Assembly: GCA_020341815.1 (NCBI GenBank)
Contig: CP070837.1
Coordinates: 692,211 to 756,210 of the forward strand
Source: Candidatus Omnitrophota bacterium
GTDB lineage: Bacteria; Omnitrophota; Gorgyraeia; JAFGHF01
Direction of reading: 5' to 3'
DNA length: 64,000 nucleotides
Notes under the pieces: generated by a model
Database searches by the model: none
Seen by the model: the letters and a program-made list of their open reading frames with translations, nothing else
Told to the model about the DNA's origin: nothing
In this document: positions 1 through 24,211 of the stretch, piece after piece
Numbering within the stretch: position 1 is the stretch's first letter
Layout: each line of letters opens with the position of its first letter
Program-made: the position numbers and the translations under genes

Positions 1-1048
1 TTTGCCAGTATAGCCACAGGCGTTACGATATTAAAATAAAAGGCTGTAATAGGCGCAAGGCCTATCCAGGCCGCTAAGGATGCGGATGCAACCCTAACAA
101 GATAAAAAAGACAACGATTGGATACGGGAAAAAGTCCTTCTATTTTGGGCGTAAAATAGACGATAGAAATCACGCTCAAAAATGAAAGCTGAAATCCCGC
201 TTCAAATAAATAATAGGGGCGCGCAATCAGAATAATCAGCGCCGAAAGCCCCAGGGAATTATATATCTCTATCTCTCTGTTTATCAAATAACCGAATAAG
301 ACGACGCTCGCCATAATGGTTGCCCTGACCACCGAAGGCCGCGCCCCGCTAAGTGAAGCATAAGCAATTAAAACAAGGATAGTAAGAATGAAAGTTAAGC
401 GGCGGCCCAGACGAAATAATTTGAACAGGGCAACTATAATAGAGGCGATCAAGGCTATATGTAAACCGCTGATAGCCAGGATATGAATTGTGCCGGTATG
501 GATGAATAAATCCTTGATATCTTCCGAAAGACTGCTGCGCTCACCTAAAAGAATAGCCGATAAGAGAGAAGCCTCTTTGGGTTCAAGATATTGATAAATA
601 ATCCCGCGCAGTTTTTCCTTGAGATTGAAAACATTCTTGACGAAGTCTCTTTGGGAAGATATCCGCCTAAGCGCGTCTTTTTCCTTTACCTTCAACAAGG
701 CAAAGATATCGTGGTTGGCTAAATATTCCCGATAGTTAAAGCCCCCGGGATTGCGCAGGCTTAAAGGGCGCAGCAGCGACCCCTCAAGAAAAAGCCTATC
801 CCCATATTCTATTTTTCGCTCTCCGTATAGAGTTACCTTGACTAATCCTTCTGTCTTCTGCCAGTTTTGCTTAACTCCTAACTCAGAGGCCCGCAGAATA
901 AAAGTCGTCTTTGGGGTGTGATAAAAGGTCTGAGTAACTTCAGGGGCTGAAGTCACCCTCCCCCGGATAGAGACTTTTTGCGGATTGTTAAAGGCAAAAT
1001 TACGGATATGGGAGGCAGGATATATCTGTGCGTTTTCCAGATGAAGCA
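1..1048 (-). CDS. ComEC/Rec2-family competence protein, N-terminal part (gene runs off the left edge)
   Basis: The reverse-strand translation starts MLHLENAQIYPASHIRNFAFNNPQKVS at the cat at 1046-1048. It continues into a DUF4131-like region and hydrophobic competence-domain helices (..LIAYASLSGARPSVVRATIMASVVLFGYL..). It is absent from the ORF track because there is no in-window stop. Confidence 0.55.
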
Positions 1049-3585: not shown

Positions 3586-6024
3586 TTACAACACTATACT
3601 AACCAGCTTTCTGGGTACAATCAAGAATTTTTTAACAGGCTTTTCTTTTATCCAGGTGGTTACTTTTTCATTATGCAAGACTTGTTCTTTCAAATCTTCT
3701 TCGGTTATGTCATAAGGCACAGTTATCTTAGCGCGCACCCTGCCGTTTATCTGCACCACAATCAAGACCTCTTCTGCCTGAATGGCCTCTTTATCGTAGC
3801 TGGGCCAGGGAAGCTCAAAGATGCTATTTTTCTTTCCCAAGAGCTGCCACATCTCTTCTGCCATATGCGGCACAAACGGAGAGAGCAAAATCACTGTCGC
3901 CTCAAGCGCCTCTTCCCTCGCAACCGCATCCACCCCTTCATCCTGGGCTTTATAAATTTCATTCACCAGCTCCATAATTGCGCTGATAGCAGTATTAAAA
4001 TGGAACTCCCGCTCGATATCCTCGGTTACTTTCTTAATGGTCAGGTGGGTCTTTCTTTTTAGCCAATCGTTTTTCTTGCCTTCTGCAACATTTGGCTGTT
4101 TTATCAGGCGCCACACCCTGTTAAGGAAGCGCCAGGCGCCCTCCACCCCCCTATCATTCCACTCGGCGTCTTTTTCCGGAGGGCCGATAAATAAGGTATA
4201 AAGCCTGACCGTATCGGCGCCGTATTTAGCAATAAGCTCATCGGGGCTGACCACGTTGCCTTTGGACTTGGACATCTTTGCCCCGGATTTTATTATCATG
4301 CCTTGAGTAAACAATCTCTTAAAGGGCTCATCGAAATCCACCAGGCCCAAATCATAAAAAACCTTGGTAATAAAGCGGGAATATAAAAGGTGCAGGATAG
4401 CGTGCTCCACTCCGCCGATATACTGGTCAACGGGCAGCCATTTATTGACAATCTCCCGTTCAAAAGGCCTGTTCTTATCCTTAGGGGAAAGATAGCGCAG
4501 ATAATACCAGCTGGAATCAACAAAGGTATCCATGGTGTCTGTCTCTCTGCGGGCCTTGGCCTTGCATTTAGGACAAGTCGTATTCACGAAAGCCCTGGCC
4601 TGTTTCAAAGGTGACTCTCCGTGCGGCCTGAATTCCACTTTTTCCGGAAGCAGAACCGGAAGGTCTTTCTCATTAACAGGGACTTGCCCGCAATGCTCGC
4701 AATAGATAATAGGAATAGGCGCCCCCCAGTATCTCTGACGGGAAATCAGCCAATCCCTCAGCCGATAGTGAACAGTCCTTTGGCCGATTTTTTTCTTTTC
4801 CATAAAATCGGCTATTTTTTCCATTGCCTGGCGGTTATCCAGGCCGTCAAACTGGGCGGAGTTTACCATTACCCCCTCATCCACATAGGCCCCGCGCATA
4901 GTCTGCGCATTCAAGGCCTCATTAGGATTATCTATGACTACCTCTATCGGCAAATTGTATTTTTTGGCAAATTCAAAGTCTCTTTGGTCATGTGCCGGAA
5001 CAGCCATCACCGCCCCCGTGCCGTATTCCATCAATACATAATTGGCAATCCAGAGAGGAATCTGGCGATTATTTACCGGATTAATTACATACCTGCCTGT
5101 AAAGATTCCTTCTTTTTCTATCTCTGCAGTAGCGCGGGATGCTATATTCTGCTTTCTCACCTTTTCGACAAATGCAAGAATATCGTCTCTATTCGGGGCG
5201 CCCTCTATTAATTTTTCGATATCGGGATGCTCGGCCGCCAGGACCATATAAGTTGCTCCGTATATAGTATCTACCCTGGTAGTAAAACAACTTAAAGCCT
5301 TATCTTCTCCTTCAAGCGGAAAATCTATCCTTACGCCTTCGCTTCTGCCGATCCAATTCTGCTGCATTGTCCTGACGCGCTGGGGCCACTCTTTCAATTT
5401 GGATAAATCATCCAAAAGCCGCTGGGCGTAAGCGGTAATCTTAAAGAACCATTGCTCCAGAACTTTTTCCGTGACTTGATTATCGCATCTCCAGCAGCGG
5501 CCTTCGATAACCTGCTCATTGGCCAGAATAGTCTGGCACGACGGACACCAGTTCACCGCCGCCTTTTTCTTATAGGCAAGGCCCTTTTCATAAAGTTTTA
5601 AGAATATCCACTGGGTCCATTTATAATAATCGGGTAGGCAGGAGGTAACTTCTCTCGACCAGTCATAGCCTGTGCCCCAGGCATCAAGCTGTTTTTTCAT
5701 TCGGGTGATATTTCTCAGGCTTGAGGTTTTGGGGTGGATACCGTCTTTTATTGCCGCATTCTCCGCCGGCAGACCAAAAGCATCCCAACCCATCGGCGTA
5801 AGAACGTTAAAGCCCCGCATCATCATAAAGCGCGCCACCACATCGCCAATGATATAATTGCGGCCATGACCCACGTGCAGGGCCGATGAGGGATAGGGAA
5901 ACATCATCAGGCAGTAATATTTAGTCTTGGGCGAGCGCGGGTCCATCTTAAACAAACCGATTTTACGCCAGAACTTCTGCCATTTAGGCTCGATCTTCTT
6001 GAATGGATAGGAATTTTCTGTCAT
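3586..6024 (-). CDS. leuS: Leucyl-tRNA synthetase
   Basis: 812 aa. It carries the HIGH-type motif HVGHGRNY, KMSKSKGN, and the editing-domain and C-terminal architecture of bacterial LeuS. Confidence 0.95.
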   Translation of the reverse strand: MTENSYPFKKIEPKWQKFWRKIGLFKMDPRSPKTKYYCLMMFPYPSSALHVGHGRNYIIGDVVARFMMMRGFNVLTPMGWDAFGLPAENAAIKDGIHPKTSSLRNITRMKKQLDAWGTGYDWSREVTSCLPDYYKWTQWIFLKLYEKGLAYKKKAAVNWCPSCQTILANEQVIEGRCWRCDNQVTEKVLEQWFFKITAYAQRLLDDLSKLKEWPQRVRTMQQNWIGRSEGVRIDFPLEGEDKALSCFTTRVDTIYGATYMVLAAEHPDIEKLIEGAPNRDDILAFVEKVRKQNIASRATAEIEKEGIFTGRYVINPVNNRQIPLWIANYVLMEYGTGAVMAVPAHDQRDFEFAKKYNLPIEVVIDNPNEALNAQTMRGAYVDEGVMVNSAQFDGLDNRQAMEKIADFMEKKKIGQRTVHYRLRDWLISRQRYWGAPIPIIYCEHCGQVPVNEKDLPVLLPEKVEFRPHGESPLKQARAFVNTTCPKCKAKARRETDTMDTFVDSSWYYLRYLSPKDKNRPFEREIVNKWLPVDQYIGGVEHAILHLLYSRFITKVFYDLGLVDFDEPFKRLFTQGMIIKSGAKMSKSKGNVVSPDELIAKYGADTVRLYTLFIGPPEKDAEWNDRGVEGAWRFLNRVWRLIKQPNVAEGKKNDWLKRKTHLTIKKVTEDIEREFHFNTAISAIMELVNEIYKAQDEGVDAVAREEALEATVILLSPFVPHMAEEMWQLLGKKNSIFELPWPSYDKEAIQAEEVLIVVQINGRVRAKITVPYDITEEDLKEQVLHNEKVTTWIKEKPVKKFLIVPRKLVSIVL

Positions 6025-9386: not shown

Positions 9387-10433
9387 TTAAAAAATATAAT
9401 TGCCGAAAAACCAGCCCACTGTACTTCCTAAGATAATTATCGTAACCACGTAACAGAGGGCCTTTTTAACCCCAAAGACACGGGCAATCGCCAGCCAATT
9501 GGGCAGGCTTATGCCCGGCCCTGTCAGAAGAAGAGCCAGAGACGGCCCCTTGCCCATGCCCAGCTTCATCAATGTATCCACAAAAGGCGCCTCGGTCATA
9601 GTGGCAAAATAGCTTATCGCCCCCAGCATTGTAGCCAGAAAGGAAGCCGAAAGGCTGTTACCTCCCAGCCACCTTCTTATCCAGTCCTCAGGCAGAATTT
9701 TACCAATGATGCCAACGATAAAAACGCCCAATAACAGCAAAGGAAAGATTATCCTGACAAACCAGAAGGTCTGCCTCATCCAGTCTTTTAGCTCTTGTTT
9801 TGACTTTACCTTCAGGGCATAGGCGAGCATAATCAACGTAGCCAGACCCCAGACAAAAACCTTATGCAAATAAGGGCCCTTCCTTATAACATAGTTCGGC
9901 AAAAGCAAGCTGGCCAGAATCAATAGAATAAGGATGATGTCTTTTGCGGCGATGATTTTTCCTCCTGCTGTCTCCTGATTCTCTTCAATCCGTTTTTGTT
10001 CGCTCCTGCGAAAGACAGTGCTCATTATTATCCCAACCACAAAGGCCATAAGCAAGGCCGAAATTATTCTTGCGGTGACCATGCCATAGCCCAAAATTGC
10101 CCCGGTATATAAAAGGGCCAGGATATTTGAGGCCGGGGCAACCCATAACAGGATAAAGGCAGGGCCGATGCCGCTTCCTCTATAATAGAGGCCACTGGCA
10201 ACGGGGATAACCGTGCAGGAGCAGGCAGCCAGAAAGAAGCTGCCCAGGGCGGCTAAGCTGAATGACTTTATCTTATTTGCCGTATAACCCAGATGCCTGA
10301 TTATGGCCTCTTTGGATATAAAAGACACCATTGCCCCGGCCAGGAGAAACGCCGGCACAAGGCACGTTACCACATGCTCTATGATGTATTCTTTTACCGA
10401 TAAAAAACCTGCAATAATCAGCTCTGTTATCAT
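9387..10433 (-). CDS. Predicted permease (DUF318-type) partner of the redox-active disulfide protein
   Basis: A polytopic membrane protein. The start is trimmed to MITELIIAGFL (cat at 10431-10433), because the longer ORF would overlap tRNA-Leu. Confidence 0.6.
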   Translation of the reverse strand: MITELIIAGFLSVKEYIIEHVVTCLVPAFLLAGAMVSFISKEAIIRHLGYTANKIKSFSLAALGSFFLAACSCTVIPVASGLYYRGSGIGPAFILLWVAPASNILALLYTGAILGYGMVTARIISALLMAFVVGIIMSTVFRRSEQKRIEENQETAGGKIIAAKDIILILLILASLLLPNYVIRKGPYLHKVFVWGLATLIMLAYALKVKSKQELKDWMRQTFWFVRIIFPLLLLGVFIVGIIGKILPEDWIRRWLGGNSLSASFLATMLGAISYFATMTEAPFVDTLMKLGMGKGPSLALLLTGPGISLPNWLAIARVFGVKKALCYVVTIIILGSTVGWFFGNYIF

Positions 10434-10445
10434 TTTATATTTTAC

Positions 10446-10534
10446 TGGTGCCGGAGGTGGGAGTCGAACCCACACGGGGTTTAAGCCCCACTGGATTTTG
10501 AGTCCAGCGCGTCTGCCAATTTCACCACTCCGGC
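10446..10534 (-). tRNA. tRNA-Leu (anticodon CAA)
   Basis: Reverse complement GCCGGAGTGGTGAAATTGGCAGACGCGCTGGACTCAAAATCCAGTGGGGCTTAAACCCCGTGTGGGTTCGACTCCCACCTCCGGCACCA. It has a long variable arm and the anticodon loop is ctCAAaa. Confidence 0.8.
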
Positions 10535-10675
10535 TTAATGAGCACTGAATTTACGAAACACAAGGTGTTTTGTAAATTCATCCTCTTTAGTTTTTCTTCT
10601 TTAGTTTGTGTAAATTAATCCCGATAGCAATGAGAAAATTTATTTATAAATTTTGAAATGTTTTGCTATCGGGAT
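10535..10675 (-). repeat. Copy A of a repeated intergenic module (12-bp-stem palindrome plus conserved AATGAGCACT box)
   Basis: Stem arms atcccgatagca (10618-10629) and tgctatcgggat (10664-10675) flank a conserved interior (agaaaattta..ataaatttt). The box aatgagcact (10537-10546) abuts the tRNA-Leu 5' end. Copy B is at 13586-13696. Confidence 0.5.
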
Positions 10676-10686
10676 AAACTCACAAC

Positions 10687-11661
10687 TTACGATTCCGTTT
10701 CTTTTTCTTCTTCGAACACGCCTATTTTTCGGAACTTTTTATATCTTTCTTCCAGGAGCTCCTCTTTTGACAGAGACAATAGCTGCTGTAAATATTTTTT
10801 AATCGCCGACTTGATATTCTTAGCACAACCCTCCGGGTCGCGATGCGCCCCGCCTAAAGGCTCTTTAATAACCTCCTCCACCACTCCCATCTTAAATAAA
10901 TCACGGGCCGTAAGCTTTAAGGCATCCGCAGCCTCGGGCGCGCGGGCCCTATCCCTCCAGAGAATAGCAGCGCAGCCTTCGGGAGAAATAACCGAATAAT
11001 AGGCATTTTCCAGTATACAAACCTTATCCCCTATGCCGATACCTAAGGCACCGCCGCTTCCTCCCTCACCGATAACAAAAGCGATTATCGGCACTGCAAT
11101 TGCCGTCATCTCTCTTAAGTTAAGGGCAATACTCTGCGCCTGTCCTCTTTCTTCAGCGCCTATACCGGGATAGGCCCCCGGGGTATCGATAAATATCACG
11201 ATAGGGATATTGAATTTTTCCGCCAGCTGCATCGCCTTCAGGGCCTTCCTGTATCCTTCAGGATGCGCGCATCCGAAATTGCGCAGCAAGTTTTCCTTGG
11301 TGTCTCTGCCCTTCTGATGCCCGATAACCACAACCTTCTGCCCGTTAAGTCTGGCCAGACCCGTAATCATCGCTTTATCATCGGCAAAAAGCCTGTCGCC
11401 GTGCAGCTCTATAAAATCTTTCATAATTAGATCTATATAATCTAATGTATAGGGCCTCTGGGGATGGCGGGCAATCTGCACCCTTTGCCAGGCAGTTAAA
11501 TTTTCGAAAATCTCGCGTTTTAACTTCTCCAGCCTTTGCGTCAGGTGCTTTATCTCCGAGGAAAGGTCTATCTTTTCGGTCTCGGTAAGACCTTTGAGCT
11601 CTTCGATCTTGCGCTCAAGTTCCAGGATGGGCTTCTCAAAATCCAATCCGCTTGCCTTCAA
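10687..11661 (-). CDS. accA: Acetyl-CoA carboxylase carboxyltransferase alpha subunit
   Basis: 324 aa. [23 protein letters not shown].., then the conserved ..[15 protein letters not shown].. carboxyltransferase core. Confidence 0.9.
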
Positions 11662-11673
11662 AGGAATTTCACC

Positions 11674-12633
11674 TCAATCTACAATAATTACTTCGGTTTC
11701 TCTGGGCAAAATAGTAAATAACTCTTCCACTTCGTTATTCAACATTCTAACACAGCCGTTGGTGACCTGGCTTCCTAAGTCCTCTTCGGTTGCGCCGCCG
11801 TGAATGCCGTATTCCGGCTCGGAAAGCCCCAGCCATCTTGTGCCCAGAATGTTTTCCGGGGTGTTCGGCGGAATTATCCCCTCCCCGTCTTTATACCAGG
11901 GCGGATTTTTTAATTTTTCTACAATTTTAAAAGCCCCTTCGGGGGTGCAATCATATTTTCCCGTAGCCACCGGATAAACTTTAAAGATTTCCTCATCCGC
12001 CTTCAAGGCAAGGGAACTCTGCGACTTATCGACGATTACGCTGTATTTAGCAGTGGAAACCTTCAGGCGCTTTCCCGGCCTGATCAGATGATTGTCTAAG
12101 CTATTGCTGCGCATAATCAAATCTACCGTCGTATTATATTTAGCGGCGATTTTGGCCAGGGTATCGCCCGGCTCCACTTTATAAAGGATATCTCTCTCTG
12201 TCACAATGGGAGAAAACAGGACTTTTATATTCAGCGTCCAGAGTTTATTTTCCACGTCGGAAATCTGTTCAAAACTGGGAAAATTGACAATAATCTCATT
12301 GTAAGCGGCTTTTGCCTCCTGCCAAAGACTTTCTCCTTCGTAAATCTCTGCCAATTTATACAAAGCCTCTGCGGCCTTGGGGCTGCGGGGAAACTTTTTC
12401 ACTAACTCCTGATAGAGCTTAACGGCCTTGGTTGTCTGGTTCTTGGACTGCCAGGACAAAGCAGTGCGATAAAGGGAATCGGCCTGGGGCACAGGCTGCT
12501 TGCTTCTTTTGCCCTTGCCGACCTGACCCACAATGCAAACTATTATCAAGCATCCTGTCAAACCAATTACTCCTGAGAATAATAATTTTTTATTCACCTT
12601 TACCTCCTTCTTTTTATATGAAGATAATTGCAA
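11674..12633 (-). CDS. L,D-transpeptidase (YkuD domain) with TPR and LysM regions
   Basis: Signal anchor, then a TPR-like region, LysM (YKVEPGDTLAKIAAKYNTTVDLI) and the catalytic motif GIHGG...SQVTNGCVRMLN. Confidence 0.7.
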   Translation of the reverse strand: MQLSSYKKKEVKVNKKLLFSGVIGLTGCLIIVCIVGQVGKGKRSKQPVPQADSLYRTALSWQSKNQTTKAVKLYQELVKKFPRSPKAAEALYKLAEIYEGESLWQEAKAAYNEIIVNFPSFEQISDVENKLWTLNIKVLFSPIVTERDILYKVEPGDTLAKIAAKYNTTVDLIMRSNSLDNHLIRPGKRLKVSTAKYSVIVDKSQSSLALKADEEIFKVYPVATGKYDCTPEGAFKIVEKLKNPPWYKDGEGIIPPNTPENILGTRWLGLSEPEYGIHGGATEEDLGSQVTNGCVRMLNNEVEELFTILPRETEVIIVD

Positions 12634-13060
12634 CCAAAATCCCGATTATGGCTCCGATAAAAACTTCAATAGGTGTATGCCCCAGAAACTCTCTAAGACT
12701 TTCCTCTTTCAATTTCTTCTTCCAATAGATATCATCTAAAATCATATTTAAAATTTCCGCCTGCTCCCCCACCGACCTTCTGAAGCCCTGGGCATCCATC
12801 ATAATTATCCAGGCAAAAACCAGAGTTACCGCAAAAACGGGAGACGTCACTCCGAATCTTAAGCCGATTGCGCCAGCCAAAGCCGAAACCGTTGCTGCGT
12901 GTGAGCTGGGCATCCCCCCTGTATCTACAAACCACCTGAAATTAAATCTTTTTTCGGTGATTACGCCTAAAAACACCTTGGCGCTCTGGGCAATGAACCA
13001 GGCCACCAATACGGTAACGAACACCTCATTTTGAAATACCTGTCTAAAGAAATTTATCAT
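12614..13060 (-). CDS. DUF212 / YuiD-like divergent PAP2 (acid phosphatase-related) membrane protein
   Basis: 148 aa. ..DTGGMPSSHAATVSALA.. motif within four TM helices. Confidence 0.55.
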   Translation of the reverse strand: MINFFRQVFQNEVFVTVLVAWFIAQSAKVFLGVITEKRFNFRWFVDTGGMPSSHAATVSALAGAIGLRFGVTSPVFAVTLVFAWIIMMDAQGFRRSVGEQAEILNMILDDIYWKKKLKEESLREFLGHTPIEVFIGAIIGILVAIIFI

Positions 13061-13072
13061 TTATGCTGTCTT

Positions 13073-13570
13073 TTATCGATCCTTATAGGAAAGTTTACCA
13101 ACGGGCTCAAGCTCTACTCTTATCCTTGGCTTAAAAGTCGAATGACTGTGCTTTACGAGATAACCCTTGTTTCCCTTTCGCAGGGCTAATTCATCTTCTG
13201 TGCGCAGCATTGCGACCTTTGCCGAACGCCTTTGCAGCTTTTCTCTTAATCTAACGGCCTTAATTGCCTTTTTTAACTCCTTCAGAGAGAGAAACTTCTC
13301 TTCAAGGATGCCCTTTTCCTTAATGAGCCCGGCAATTTTGGCCTGCAGTTGGTCTCTTTCTTCTTTGAGCGCCTGAAGCTGGCTTCTAAAGCCTGAATTG
13401 TCCTTTTCTAAAAAGGCAATGGTTGTATTTAATTTTTCTAACTTTGCGGATGTCTCTTCAAGTGTCTTGTCAAAATAGCGGCTCAATTTTTGATGCCGAT
13501 AATAAAAAGCAAAGCTTAAGGATAAACTCGCCAGGAGTACCGCTAAATAAAGCATGCGTAGTATCTTCAT
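13073..13570 (-). CDS. Hypothetical membrane-anchored coiled-coil protein
   Basis: 165 aa. N-terminal TM helix, heptad-rich middle and a basic C-terminus. A strong AGGAGG RBS lies upstream. Confidence 0.45.
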   Translation of the reverse strand: MKILRMLYLAVLLASLSLSFAFYYRHQKLSRYFDKTLEETSAKLEKLNTTIAFLEKDNSGFRSQLQALKEERDQLQAKIAGLIKEKGILEEKFLSLKELKKAIKAVRLREKLQRRSAKVAMLRTEDELALRKGNKGYLVKHSHSTFKPRIRVELEPVGKLSYKDR

Positions 13571-13585
13571 GCTTCACCTCCTTTA

Positions 13586-13696
13586 AATGAGCACTTAACT
13601 TATGCAACCAAAGGAAGCGTAAGTTAATGTGCGAATTTATCCCGATAGCTGCAAGAAAATTTAGAATAAATTTTCGTAGCGTTTTGCTATCGGGGT
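13586..13696 (-). repeat. Copy B of the repeated intergenic module (palindrome plus AATGAGCACT box)
   Basis: Stem arms atcccgatagc (13639-13649) and gctatcgggg (13686-13695) with the same interior consensus as copy A. The box aatgagcact (13586-13595) sits just upstream of the RBS of the 13570 gene. Confidence 0.5.
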
Positions 13697-13737
13697 GTTC
13701 TTTTATTATAATAGACAATTACTCAAAAGGCAAGGTG

Positions 13738-15126
13738 TTATTTTCCAATACAAAATTGAGAAAAGATACGCTCCAGGATATCCTCACAATGTATCTTGCC
13801 GATTATCTCGCCTAAAAACGATTGCGCCTCTTTTATGTAGAGAGCAATAATCTCTGCCCCCTGGCTCATCTTTATTGCTTTAACTGCCCGCCGCAGAGAA
13901 AGATGCGCCTTCTTTAAGGCCTGCCGATGCCTGATGTTGGTAACCAAAAGTTCATCTCCTGAGGGCGCCTCCCCCCGCCAGAGGTATGCGGCTATTTCTC
14001 TTTGTAAGTTCTTCAAGCCTCTGCCGCGAAGGGCGGAGACTTTTATAACCTTTCTGCCCCTTGAGACCCTGCTTAACTCATCCGCCTCTATCTTCTGAGG
14101 CAAATCCTGTTTATTCAAAACTACAAAAGCGCATCTTTCTGAAATATATCGAGATATCTTCAAGTCTTCGGCCTCCAGCTTACGGCTGGCATCTAAAACC
14201 AGAAGGATAAGGTCTGCCTCTTTTAACGCCTTTCGGCTCCTTTTTACCGCTTCTGTTTCCGCTAAATTGCTCCCCTCGACAATTCCTGCGGTATCGATTA
14301 GGCGCAAAGGAATACCGGAAATATCAACTGTCTCCTCAAGGACATCCCTCGTTGTTCCGGGCAGAGGAGTAACAATGGCCCTGTCCTTTTTTAAGAGGGC
14401 ATTCAAAAGGCTGGATTTGCCCACATTGGGCCTGCCGCAGATAACACAGCTTATCCCCTCACGCAAAATTGTCCCTCTATCTGCGCTATCCAGAAGTTCT
14501 TTTATCTGACAGGAGGCCTTTTTTGCTTTTTTCAATATTTTTTCTAAAGACTTAGGCTCTATATCCTGATCGGCGAAATCTATAGAGGCCTCAAGTTGTG
14601 TCGATATCTCAAGAAGGCTCCTGCGCAAGCTGCCTATTTTTCTGGAAAGCCTCCCTTCTAGCTGCCCTAAGGCGGCATTTAGCGCCTGGGGGGTTTGGGA
14701 ATTAATCACATCCAAAATTGCCTCAGCCTGAGTTAAATCAATGCGCCCGGCCAGATACGCACGTCTGGTAAACTCACCCCGCCCGCTCAAGCGCACACCC
14801 AAACTCAATACCAGTTCCAGTATTTTTCTTAAGACAACGATGCCGCTGTGGCAATTAATCTCTACGATATCCTCTTTGGTATATGTCCTGGGCGCGCGCA
14901 TAACATTGAGCAAAACCTCATCGATACGCTCTTTGCCATTTTTAATCCATCCGTAATAGAGCCTGTGCGTGGCCAGCTGCGAAGGACGCTTGCCGTTGGA
15001 GCCGATAAAAATCTTATCCGCTATTGAAACGGCTTTCTTGCCGCTTAGACGCACTATGCCAATTCCGCTTTTACCCAGCGGCGTAGATATTGCCGCTATG
15101 GTGTCATCTAGATATAACTTTTCCAT
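13738..15126 (-). CDS. mnmE: tRNA modification GTPase MnmE (TrmE)
   Basis: 462 aa. G-domain GRPNVGKSSLLNALL, DTAG, NKQD, and the C-terminal CIGK motif. Confidence 0.9.
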   Translation of the reverse strand: MEKLYLDDTIAAISTPLGKSGIGIVRLSGKKAVSIADKIFIGSNGKRPSQLATHRLYYGWIKNGKERIDEVLLNVMRAPRTYTKEDIVEINCHSGIVVLRKILELVLSLGVRLSGRGEFTRRAYLAGRIDLTQAEAILDVINSQTPQALNAALGQLEGRLSRKIGSLRRSLLEISTQLEASIDFADQDIEPKSLEKILKKAKKASCQIKELLDSADRGTILREGISCVICGRPNVGKSSLLNALLKKDRAIVTPLPGTTRDVLEETVDISGIPLRLIDTAGIVEGSNLAETEAVKRSRKALKEADLILLVLDASRKLEAEDLKISRYISERCAFVVLNKQDLPQKIEADELSRVSRGRKVIKVSALRGRGLKNLQREIAAYLWRGEAPSGDELLVTNIRHRQALKKAHLSLRRAVKAIKMSQGAEIIALYIKEAQSFLGEIIGKIHCEDILERIFSQFCIGK

Positions 15127-20416: not shown

Positions 20417-20494
20417 TGGTCGGGACGGCCGGATTCGAACCGGCGACCCCTTGAACCCCATTCAAGTGCGCTAGCCAAACTGCGCCACGTCCCG
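20417..20494 (-). tRNA. tRNA-Pro (anticodon GGG)
   Basis: Reverse complement CGGGACGTGGCGCAGTTTGGCTAGCGCACTTGAATGGGGTTCAAGGGGTCGCCGGTTCGAATCCGGCCGTCCCGACCA. The anticodon loop is atGGGgt. Confidence 0.8.
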
Positions 20495-20596
20495 AACCAA
20501 AATACTTCAACGGTTAAGATTAGTAGCAAACTAATGCCATATGGCACGAGTTTTGCCAAAGTACAAAGCTTAGCAGTATTTTGGTTCGGGACACGT
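20487..20596. repeat. MITE-like 110-bp palindromic element, copy 1 (about 20-bp TIRs); left TIR overlaps the tRNA-Pro 5' end
   Basis: TIRs acgtcccgaaccaaaatact and agtattttggttcgggacacgt. The centre is the palindrome tgccatatggca. A near-identical copy in inverted orientation is at 24102-24211. Confidence 0.6.
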
Positions 20597-24101: not shown

Positions 24102-24211
24102 ACGTGCCCCGAACCAAAATACTACTAAGTTTTGTATTTTGGCAAAACTCGTGCCATATGGCATTAGTTTGCTACTAATCTCAACTGTTGAAGTATTTTG
24201 GTTCGGGGCGT
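24102..24211. repeat. MITE-like 110-bp palindromic element, copy 2 (inverted relative to copy 1); overlaps the 3' end of queF
   Basis: TIRs acgtgccccgaaccaaaatact and agtattttggttcggggcgt. The interior is about 90% identical to the reverse complement of copy 1. Confidence 0.6.

Follow-up and report, generated by a model that had tools for sequence, protein, structure and literature searches.

Two intergenic sites in a 64-kb stretch of DNA from a Candidatus Omnitrophota bacterium (contig CP070837.1; the whole stretch is referred to here as the window) contain related hairpin-forming sequences. Copy A lies between accA and a tRNA-Leu gene, and copy B between mnmE and a gene encoding a coiled-coil protein. 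The comparison of these sites with other loci suggests that both are partial copies of a modular family of palindromic intergenic repeats, similar to repetitive extragenic palindromes (REP), bacterial interspersed mosaic elements (BIME), or miniature inverted-repeat transposable elements (MITE), which propagates in genomes, is co-transcribed with its neighbors, and caps RNA ends; we regard this interpretation as probable, though not strongly so. The data showed that the family is dispersed, modular, and hairpin-forming, and that its members undergo gain, loss, and exchange at orthologous intergenic sites from one relative to another. The elements are placed from the stop codon of one gene to the Shine–Dalgarno (SD) sequence or ATG of the next, and their polarity is tied to transcription. 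They do not supply the promoter, and they probably do not provide a canonical terminator either. Element coordinates refer to the window, in which the coding direction is the minus strand, and the labels L001 to L226 denote loci from genome, metagenome, and viral contigs that were retrieved for comparison.

Two abutting hairpins at both window sites

An earlier note on this DNA described a repeated, structured module located after the stop of a gene and before the next transcription unit, and this description was correct. The inverted-repeat arms that it had pointed out, TCCCGATAGC-N-GCTATCGGG, were found in the window only at 10619–10673 and 13640–13694, with 0 matches in 100 shuffled sequences, and the interior conserved between the two copies indeed contains a nested palindrome, AAAATTTA/TAAATTTT. 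The conserved plus-strand box, AATGAGCACT, is present in exact form at 10537–10546 and 13586–13595. The neighbors named in the note, which were accA, tRNA-Leu, mnmE, and a 165-amino-acid (aa) coiled-coil open reading frame (ORF), were also confirmed, as was the location of the box, which is 2 nt from the tRNA in copy A and, on reading of the sequence, is followed by AAAGGAGG and ATG in copy B. A third exact copy of the box, on the minus strand (AGTGCTCATT on the plus strand), is located at 10017–10026 inside an ArsP permease ORF with no hairpins around it, and is probably there by chance.

At both loci a 58-nt two-tier hairpin, HP1, immediately abuts a second hairpin, hp2. The perfect stem of HP1 in copy A consists of 13 bp (10618–10630 with 10663–10675), and the stem of copy B (13639–13696) consists of nine Watson–Crick pairs, one T·G pair, and one A-T pair. 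The copies align across ~150 nt, with an extra insert of 26–28 nt in copy A. The second hairpin spans from the last base of HP1 to the box, with outer pairs GCAC/GTGC followed by UAAAU/AUUUA. The box (GTGCTCATT) is the 3′ foot of hp2 and ends at the tRNA or at the SD and ATG; in copy A hp2 ends 0–2 nt before tRNA-Leu. The supposed promoter hexamers, TTACAA..TAAATT and TTACGC..TAAGTT, are the two arms of the same hairpin. In silico folding, which the note had proposed as a check, gave minus-strand structures far more stable than those of shuffled sequences (z = −7.5 in copy A, −5.0 in copy B); over both strands, z ranged from −5 to −7.5. When the 64-kb window was searched with a covariance model of hp2, only copies A and B were matched, copy B with 65.4 bits (E 1e-17) and copy A with 15.5 bits (E 0.16) over the full model span; the lower score of copy A is explained by its 28-nt insert. 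The window copies are partial elements, which consist only of a type 1 HP1 and a class I hairpin, as defined below.

A dispersed and modular family

The occurrence of further copies was also checked. A bare scan of GTDB genome contigs for the 9+9 arms gave four true homologs among the 120 matches listed; at least four homologs with the same interior were thus obtained, two labeled Candidatus Omnitrophota, one labeled Planctomycetia, and one labeled "uncultured bacterium." MnmE homologs placed the window itself in Omnitrophota. A more specific HP1 pattern led to 30 metagenome contigs, and in 30 of 30 HP1 is directly followed by WAATTC, a hairpin, TCATT, and then SD-ATG, ATG, or nothing. The HP1 and hp2 architecture is therefore present in at least four metagenome-assembled genome (MAG) contigs and 30 metagenome contigs, and related forms were found in syntenic Omnitrophota loci and in two viral contigs. 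Because the same architecture and interior recur in other contigs, the window copies are not a local duplication, which the earlier note had named as a finding that would speak against its reading. The hp2 covariance model gave 72 matches in 300 kb of Omnitrophota-type element loci and 0 in 738 kb of control DNA. The density is about two elements per 64 kb in the window and 0–5 per 10–20 kb in relatives. The arms alone also matched REP/REPIN-like repeats of the Pseudomonas fluorescens group (L001–L120, e.g., 4978–5031 in L010), which have the same 9-bp arms, CCCGATAGC/GCTATCGGG. These repeats were rejected as homologs, because their interior is unrelated (..GGTGGGTCAGTCA..TGACTGACACACC..), and the coincidental arm match is an artifact of the pattern.

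The complete element consists, in the order of transcription, of a class II hairpin, which holds the stop codon of the upstream gene, a central palindrome, and a class I hairpin followed by SD/ATG. At both ends of the complete elements there are related hp2 units in inverted orientation (alignment A2), and the window copies carry one such end. Class I hairpins have a closing stem of GCAC, GCGC, or GCAG and a foot AAUUC...UCAUU. In 21 of 22 cases the class I foot (GYGCTCATT) precedes a real ORF start at a distance of 2–18 nt, and the gap from the foot to the SD/ATG or tRNA is 0–18 nt; the genes that follow are varied and include ilvB, ilvC, ribH, nusB, argB, mtnA, those for ribosomal proteins S2, S9, L29, and L31, and genes of secreted proteins. 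Class II hairpins have a closing stem of GGCC, GGAC, AGCC, or AGAC, and their foot is often AAGUUC...UCACUU. They face the 3′ end of a gene transcribed toward the hairpin, and in 10 cases the TAA or TGA stop codon of a 150–364-aa ORF is located inside the foot. The type of closing stem is tied to the side of the element (Fisher p = 4e-5), and none of the elements examined had class I hairpins on both sides, which indicates that the element is co-directional with both flanking genes.

The central module occurs in at least four types. Type 1 is the CCCGATAGC hairpin present in the window, type 2 has the core ..AAAATT-CTCTTCGAY-AATTTT.., and further types include a CCTTGACATTTT.. hairpin, simple GC hairpins, and a palindrome of ~100 nt with two outward TTGCYA-N18-TATTTT promoters. 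Type 1 is found in either orientation, by our own count about 21 one way and 9 the other. The several central types, the optional 28-nt insert, and tandem modules together give the family a mosaic appearance. This last type also stands alone in the window at 20491–20590 and 24107–24208, where it forms a second repeat family. The palindrome of ~100 nt has terminal arms of 16–20 bp (CCCGAACCAAAATACT/AGTATTTTGGTTCGGG), its center is GTGCCATATGGCAC, and its two TTGCYA-N18-TATTTT promoters are sigma70-like and point outward. The arm of its first copy overlaps the first 4 nt of tRNA-Pro, and the interior of its second copy is inverted relative to the first. A module homologous to this second family occupies the central, HP1 place between class II and class I hairpins in L154 (9430–9539).

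Many class I hairpins, among them those of L140, L150, L156, and L129, contain an ATG in the 5′ arm (A/CTTATG), from which the reading frame leads to the TAA or TGA in the box, giving ORFs of 12–15 codons that end with ..HKSSAH*; these are probably a by-product of the conserved arms. Window copy A (10535–10580) has ACA instead of ATG at this position. In L146 a GC-rich, structured-looking stretch (60–330, minus strand) follows the accA-associated module, and it has no Rfam match at the gathering threshold.

Covariation of the hairpin stems

The pairing of hp2 was analyzed in a set of 29 hairpins, with slid-register alignments and 500 shuffled alignments serving as controls. The data showed that 95.6% of cells were paired, that 14 of 19 pairs were altered on both sides, and that 103 cells were compensatory. 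The covariation values were reached by 0 of the 500 shuffles, and the slid controls paired in 27–41%. The foot helix covaries as well (UUAAU/AUUAA, UAAAU/AUUUA, UCAAU/AUUGA, and UAAGU/ACUUA), which shows that the bases directly 3′ of HP1 belong to hp2. The HP1 pairs located outside the search pattern also covary: pair 18–48 is GC in 14 copies and AU in 11, pair 31–36 is AU in 20 and GC in 6, and pair 3–59 is UA in 19 and CG in 4.

The pair counts were 520 Watson–Crick pairs versus 4 G·U and 6 A·C, with no strand bias. The loop sequences were conserved relative to the element's own symmetry, and the internal loop TC/TC was kept in 24 of the 29 hairpins. The almost pure Watson–Crick pairing and the loops that follow the element's own symmetry are better explained by DNA-level palindromes or young copies than by helices selected in RNA. 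The antisense fold was more stable in 27 of 33 cases, which in our reading is due to the UC/UC loop turning into a tandem GA loop. The G·U and A·C counts, which are equally tiny, did not assign a putative RNA to either strand. When the window was searched against Rfam, only tRNAs were found at or above the gathering threshold and no family corresponded to the element; the best sub-threshold match was AbsR25, in copy A only, with 37.9 bits versus a gathering value of 47. The absence of an Rfam family at threshold and the lack of strand asymmetry in the stems speak against the small structured RNA suggested in the earlier note.

Gain and loss at orthologous sites

The syntenic relatives compared were L151–L160, in which the order hom, thrC, pgm, mur ligase, mnmE, coiled-coil gene, DUF212, YkuD, accA, and tRNA-Leu is kept. 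Both window copies are missing from L151, whose MnmE is 94% identical. The mnmE site of L151 has the same TTGCCT-N17-TATAAT and the same aaaggaggtgaagcATG, and a 32-nt leader takes the place of the ~125-nt element. The fact that the promoter and the SD/ATG are kept without the element shows that the promoter is separate from copy B, which falls in the stretch from the −10 hexamer to the SD. Since it lies downstream from a conserved −10 hexamer and upstream of the native SD, copy B is, as judged from these sequences, very probably transcribed as a 5′ leader. Both sites are empty in L152, and the mnmE site of L156 contains two complete elements, which flank the same promoter on either side. The spacer between accA and tRNA-Leu contains nothing in L152, unrelated hairpins in L151 and L156, a class II hairpin with type 2 HP1 in L154 and L146, and type 1 HP1 with a class I hairpin in the window. 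Syntenic loci chosen independently of the element had from 0 to 5 elements each, and at other junctions the elements were present in a single lineage only.

In L152 (3885–4075) a 15-nt partial duplicate of the tRNA-Pro 5′ end, CGGAGCGTGGCGCAG, is located just upstream of a module made of an HP1 variant and a class I hairpin, which precedes the real tRNA-Pro at 4058; the partial duplicate may be a trace of the insertion or copying of the module. A TAA or TTAA target-site duplication was considered and rejected, because the terminal trinucleotide covaries with its internal partner and so belongs to the hairpin foot.

Promoter and terminator signals

The earlier note read the module as a terminator followed by a promoter, and of this reading the promoter part was not supported and the terminator part is weak. 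The proposed promoter hexamers are arms of the covarying hp2 hairpin, their spacing, which would be 16–18 nt in a sigma70-type promoter, is 14 nt in copy B and ranges from 14 to >40 nt among copies, and some copies have no such hexamers (L126, L128, and L139). The sequence TTTACA-N17-TAAATT of copy A scores 9/12, and a spacing of 17–18 nt is kept only in the subtype with the purine-rich insert (copy A, L129, L140, L150, and L156), for which an outward promoter is possible. At copy B, a sigma70-type promoter scoring 10/12 is located outside the element, and it is the one kept with the same SD/ATG in element-free L151. Elements located 3′ of sigma70-like promoters are copy B, the second element of L156, and the L152 module in the tRNA-Pro leader, which lies downstream from TTACAA-N16-TATAAT. 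A promoter just upstream of HP1 was rejected as a general feature, because scores of at least 8/12 were found in 5 of 31 copies versus a background of 8%. A divergent promoter with a box on both sides of HP1 was also rejected, because in every case the second box is turned toward the 3′ end of a gene that runs in the same direction.

The sequence after HP1 is AUUAAUUC or AAAUUCGC, and hp2 runs into AAAGGAGG or a tRNA; there is no U-tract after either hairpin on the coding strand, and a consensus scan called neither of them a terminator there. Canonical terminators made of a hairpin and a T-run are present after tRNA-Leu in relatives. The TATAAT at 13705–13712 is part of a palindrome, ATTATAAT (region 13684–13733), and the plus strand there also scores as a promoter, TTGCTA-N17-TATAAT, whose −35 hexamer belongs to the HP1 arm. 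If used at all, this promoter would drive antisense transcription into mnmE.

Transposase genes and phage copies

A frameshifted RayT-like Y1 gene (annotated by JGI as REP element-mobilizing transposase RayT) was found in L159 (15528–15889, minus strand), downstream from accA and tRNA-Leu. No HP1 or hp2 hairpins adjoin this pseudogene, and none were found at two further Y1_Tnp loci (L161 and L162). The HP1 type 1 pattern was not found in IMG/VR. A looser hp2 pattern gave 79 IMG/VR loci, two of which passed the covariance model at E <= 0.001. In these two viral contigs, an HP1-like hairpin and a class I hairpin stand flush with an SD-less ATG. One of them, L226, contains a lambda-like head module with terminase, gpW-like protein, portal, and S49 protease genes; its element immediately precedes the gpW-like gene, with the TCATT box adjoining the ATG. 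The copies in a phage late operon suggest a route of spread or the use of a host RNA-processing activity.

The features discussed above are collected in Table 1. Pfam also supports genes of a LysM/YkuD protein and a DUF212 protein on the minus strand of the same region.

Table 1. Positions of the hairpin elements, their parts, and adjacent features (window coordinates unless a locus is named)
Feature	Position	Strand	Remarks
Copy A HP1, type 1 central palindrome	10618..10675	-	Outer 13-bp stem ATCCCGATAGCAA/TTGCTATCGGGAT
Copy A HP1, inner parts	10618..10675	-	Bulge AAC, 2-bp middle stem AU/AU, inner stem AAAATTTA/TAAATTTT
Copy A class I hairpin hp2	10535..10617	-	5′ foot ATTAATTT-ACAC, 28-nt insert, inner hairpin, 3′ foot AGTGC-TCATTAA
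Copy A optional purine-rich insert AAACTAAAGAAGAAAAACTAAAGAGGAT	10581..10608	-	Also in L125, L129, L140, L150, L152, L156
Copy A hp2 inner hairpin	10547..10579	-	GAATTTAC-AAAACAC-CTT-GTGTTTC-GTAAATTC; arms are the TTTACA / TAAATT hexamers
Copy A box AGTGCTCATT, hp2 3′ foot	10537..10546	-	
tRNA-Leu(caa), unit 3′ of copy A	10446..10534	-	ARAGORN and Rfam
accA	10687..11661	-	Pfam; stop codon 11 nt before copy A HP1
Copy B HP1, type 1	13639..13696	-	Differs at 1 of 54 positions from L121, L135, L136, L138, and others
Copy B class I hairpin hp2	13584..13640	-	AUAAAUUC-GCAC-A-UUAACUUACGC..GCAUAAGUUAA-GUGC-UCAUUUA
Copy B box AGTGCTCATT, hp2 3′ foot	13586..13595	-	
Native SD AAAGGAGG and ATG (13570-13568) of coiled-coil gene	13568..13584	-	Identical in element-free L151
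Coiled-coil ORF, 165 aa, 3′ of copy B	13073-13570	-	
mnmE, gene upstream of copy B	13738..15126	-	Pfam
Sigma70-type promoter TTGCCT-N17-TATAAT	13705..13733	-	After mnmE stop, 10 nt upstream of copy B HP1
Viral class I and HP1-like hairpins	L226 4918-4974 and 6763-6820; L179 3322-3378		IMG/VR

Interpretation of the element

In the interpretation that we favor, the family would spread as DNA in the manner of REP/BIME/REPIN sequences or MITEs, by means of an enzyme that may recognize the hairpins. Once transcribed, the hairpins, which are spaced by 0 nt, would serve as structural caps. For the downstream RNA, HP1 with a class I hairpin would protect the 5′ end or define it, and for the upstream RNA, a class II hairpin with HP1 would protect the 3′ end; the hairpin junctions could be processing sites for an endonuclease. 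Several observations weigh against a repeat of this kind. The exact placement, with a stop codon in one foot and an ATG 0–18 nt past the other, exceeds what would be predicted for a neutral selfish repeat, and, together with the class I and class II orientation locked to transcription, it favors a host function. No target-site duplication is visible at either window site in the comparison with L151, where the element replaces sequence rather than simply interrupting it, and a tblastn search found no RayT/Y1 gene in the window or the element loci except for the L159 pseudogene. HP1 type 1 is nearly invariant across lineages whose MnmE proteins are only 65–94% identical. Additionally, most HP1 loci were fetched with a pattern that demanded exact arms and are for this reason a biased sample, and the unbiased syntenic sample, in which loci were picked without reference to the element, is small (eight distinct loci).

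The element could alternatively be a host RNA "punctuation" device, that is, a conserved signal at the borders of cistrons for processing and translation, although we think this unlikely. An endonuclease such as RNase III, acting on the internal loops (UC/UC or GA/GA) or on the linker-free junctions, would then cut polycistronic RNA into hairpin-capped mRNAs and tRNA precursors and into leaderless or short-leader mRNAs, or else the folded array would join stop and start. The locking of class I and class II orientation to transcription (p = 4e-5), the stop codon within the class II foot in 10 cases, the box that ends 2 nt before the mature tRNA-Leu, and the TC/TC internal loop retained in 24 of 29 hairpins are all consistent with such a role. 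The ATG is located 2–4 nt past the class I hairpin without an SD in 7 of ~23 cases, with N-termini that look genuine (ilvB, L29, mtnA, nusB, argB, and a gspE-like gene), and the same element is flush with an ATG in a phage late operon. On the other hand, orthologous sites show a high turnover of elements, with empty sites in close relatives, which means that no individual gene depends on the element. Moreover, G·U pairs are almost absent and the mismatches have no strand bias, which is unlike helices selected in RNA, loop conservation follows the symmetry of the element and not the transcript, and most class I copies keep an ordinary SD. On the strength of the precise position, of the SD-less starts that adjoin the hairpin, and of the copies in phages, we keep true RNA punctuation or processing among the possible explanations. 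In its most general form, in which Omnitrophota and their phages would use the orientation-locked hairpin chain as a general cistron-boundary signal, mobile across the genome and either cut or bridging stop and start, the proposal appears quite doubtful to us. An endonuclease would in that case cut the array into hairpin-capped, sometimes leaderless mRNAs and tRNA precursors, or the array would physically join stop and start for re-initiation.

The other explanations fit the data less readily. A cassette in which HP1 terminates the upstream unit and the hp2 hexamers start the next one at the AGTGCTCATT box would agree with the position between a stop codon and the next unit, with the short leaders 3′ of the box, and with the 9/12 score of copy A and the 17–18-nt spacing in L129, L140, L150, and L156. 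Such a cassette is nevertheless very unlikely given that the hexamers are arms of a covarying hairpin, and are variably spaced or missing, that no U-tract follows HP1 or hp2, that relatives use canonical terminators elsewhere, that the promoter upstream of copy B is kept in element-free L151, and that sigma70-like promoters are not generally enriched next to HP1. The base helix of hp2 begins at the last base of HP1 and covaries; selection on this pairing in RNA would require a transcript that begins no later than HP1. We consider it highly unlikely that HP1, with its invariant arms ATCCCGATAGC/GCTATCGGGAT and AT-rich core, is bound as double-stranded DNA by a global regulator or nucleoid protein. 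The very strong conservation of the type 1 sequence, and not of the structure alone, the core rich in A/T-tracts, and the location of copy B HP1 just downstream from a −10 hexamer would suit such an operator; however, other HP1 types have entirely different arms within the same hairpin architecture and neighborhood, the arms are 34 bp apart, the middle- and inner-stem pairs covary, and the element also occurs after stop codons and inside operons without a nearby promoter. An independent small RNA gene on either strand could account for the very stable folds of both strands and for the sub-threshold AbsR25 match of copy A. It is extremely improbable, however, because this match is missing in copy B, no Rfam family reaches the threshold, and the element has no promoter or terminator of its own, is always fused to neighboring coding or tRNA sequence, and is polymorphic between close relatives.

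The Omnitrophota are uncultured, and the gene-expression signals and mobile DNA of this phylum are almost unexplored. The covariance model provides a sequence and structure marker of transcript boundaries and leaders in Omnitrophota MAGs. The elements also call for caution in annotation, because the hairpin hexamers and ATGs mimic promoters and short ORFs, and gene callers place starts inside the element (e.g., at 9580 in L154).

Comparison with known repeat families and RNA hairpins

REP sequences and BIMEs are imperfect palindromes of 20–40 bp, present in high copy number, with a cognate single-copy gene of a REP-associated tyrosine transposase (RAYT, Y1_Tnp) flanked by REPs. They are co-transcribed, and effects have been proposed on mRNA decay, termination, and the translation of the upstream gene when they lie near its stop codon. 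The Omnitrophota family is similar in that palindromic extragenic units in alternating orientation are joined with linkers into a mosaic, here an inverted class II unit, a central unit, and a class I unit, and in that it varies between related genomes. It differs in that its units are 55–60 nt long with internal loops, are side-specific and locked to the direction of transcription, and are not accompanied by a cognate RAYT in the window or the element loci. Furthermore, unlike REP/BIME sequences, the Omnitrophota element extends from stop codon to SD/ATG and thereby covers the 5′ side of genes, its central palindrome can carry promoters, and the family is conserved across deep Omnitrophota lineages and is also found in phage contigs. 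In published work, REP, BIME, and REPIN sequences are described as short extragenic palindromic units, with the REPIN consisting of two inverted REPs around a spacer (PMC2817692; PMC3116915; PMC3733652; bioRxiv 10.64898/2026.03.23.713779), and REPs are described as having one palindrome end marked by a conserved tetranucleotide tag, GTAG or CGTC (PMC3733652). The Omnitrophota units do not have this tag; the hp2 feet are WAATTC / TCATT and HP1 begins with (A)TCCCG. GTAG is confined to the interior of some HP1 variants, where it is not conserved.

Correia (NEMIS) elements of Neisseria and MITEs of the ERIC/YPAL type are palindromic intergenic repeats of 100–200 nt, often located at gene ends, which are polymorphic in presence or absence. 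They are co-transcribed as long hairpins that are substrates of RNase III or RNase E, and promoters are supplied by some copies. Their ends are defined terminal inverted repeats, their insertion duplicates a TA target, and both orientations occur. The Omnitrophota element is likewise palindromic, intergenic, and polymorphic in presence or absence. However, no duplication was seen, it forms a chain of three separate hairpins and not one foldback, and its orientation is fixed relative to genes. Integron attC sites have R″/L″..L′/R′ boxes (RYYYAAC..GTTRRRY) and stand in arrays of promoterless cassettes beside an integrase. A resemblance to such a site was also considered and rejected, because there is no RYYYAAC..GTTRRRY core and the flanks are syntenic housekeeping genes (accA, mnmE, and tRNAs).

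After cleavage of the intercistronic RNase III hairpins of phage T7, the upstream RNA keeps a 3′ hairpin and the downstream RNA begins with a short leader, and a stem–loop of the ompA-leader type within a few nucleotides of the 5′ end protects the mRNA. The Omnitrophota element is similar to the T7 sites in that hairpins with internal loops are located exactly between cistrons, with cleavage here only proposed. The T7 and ompA hairpins are single-copy and locus-specific, whereas the Omnitrophota element is a dispersed, exchangeable repeat family. A literature search on Omnitrophota/Omnitrophica promoters, palindromic repeats, and REP/RAYT found no description of the element. Since the REP tag is lacking, and neither a cognate RAYT in the window and the element loci nor a MITE-type duplication at the window sites was found, we place the family as a variant of mosaic palindromic repeats and not as a member of a named family. 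As a dispersed palindrome positioned with codon precision and fixed polarity, it bears on the question of whether REP-like repeats are selfish, domesticated, or both.

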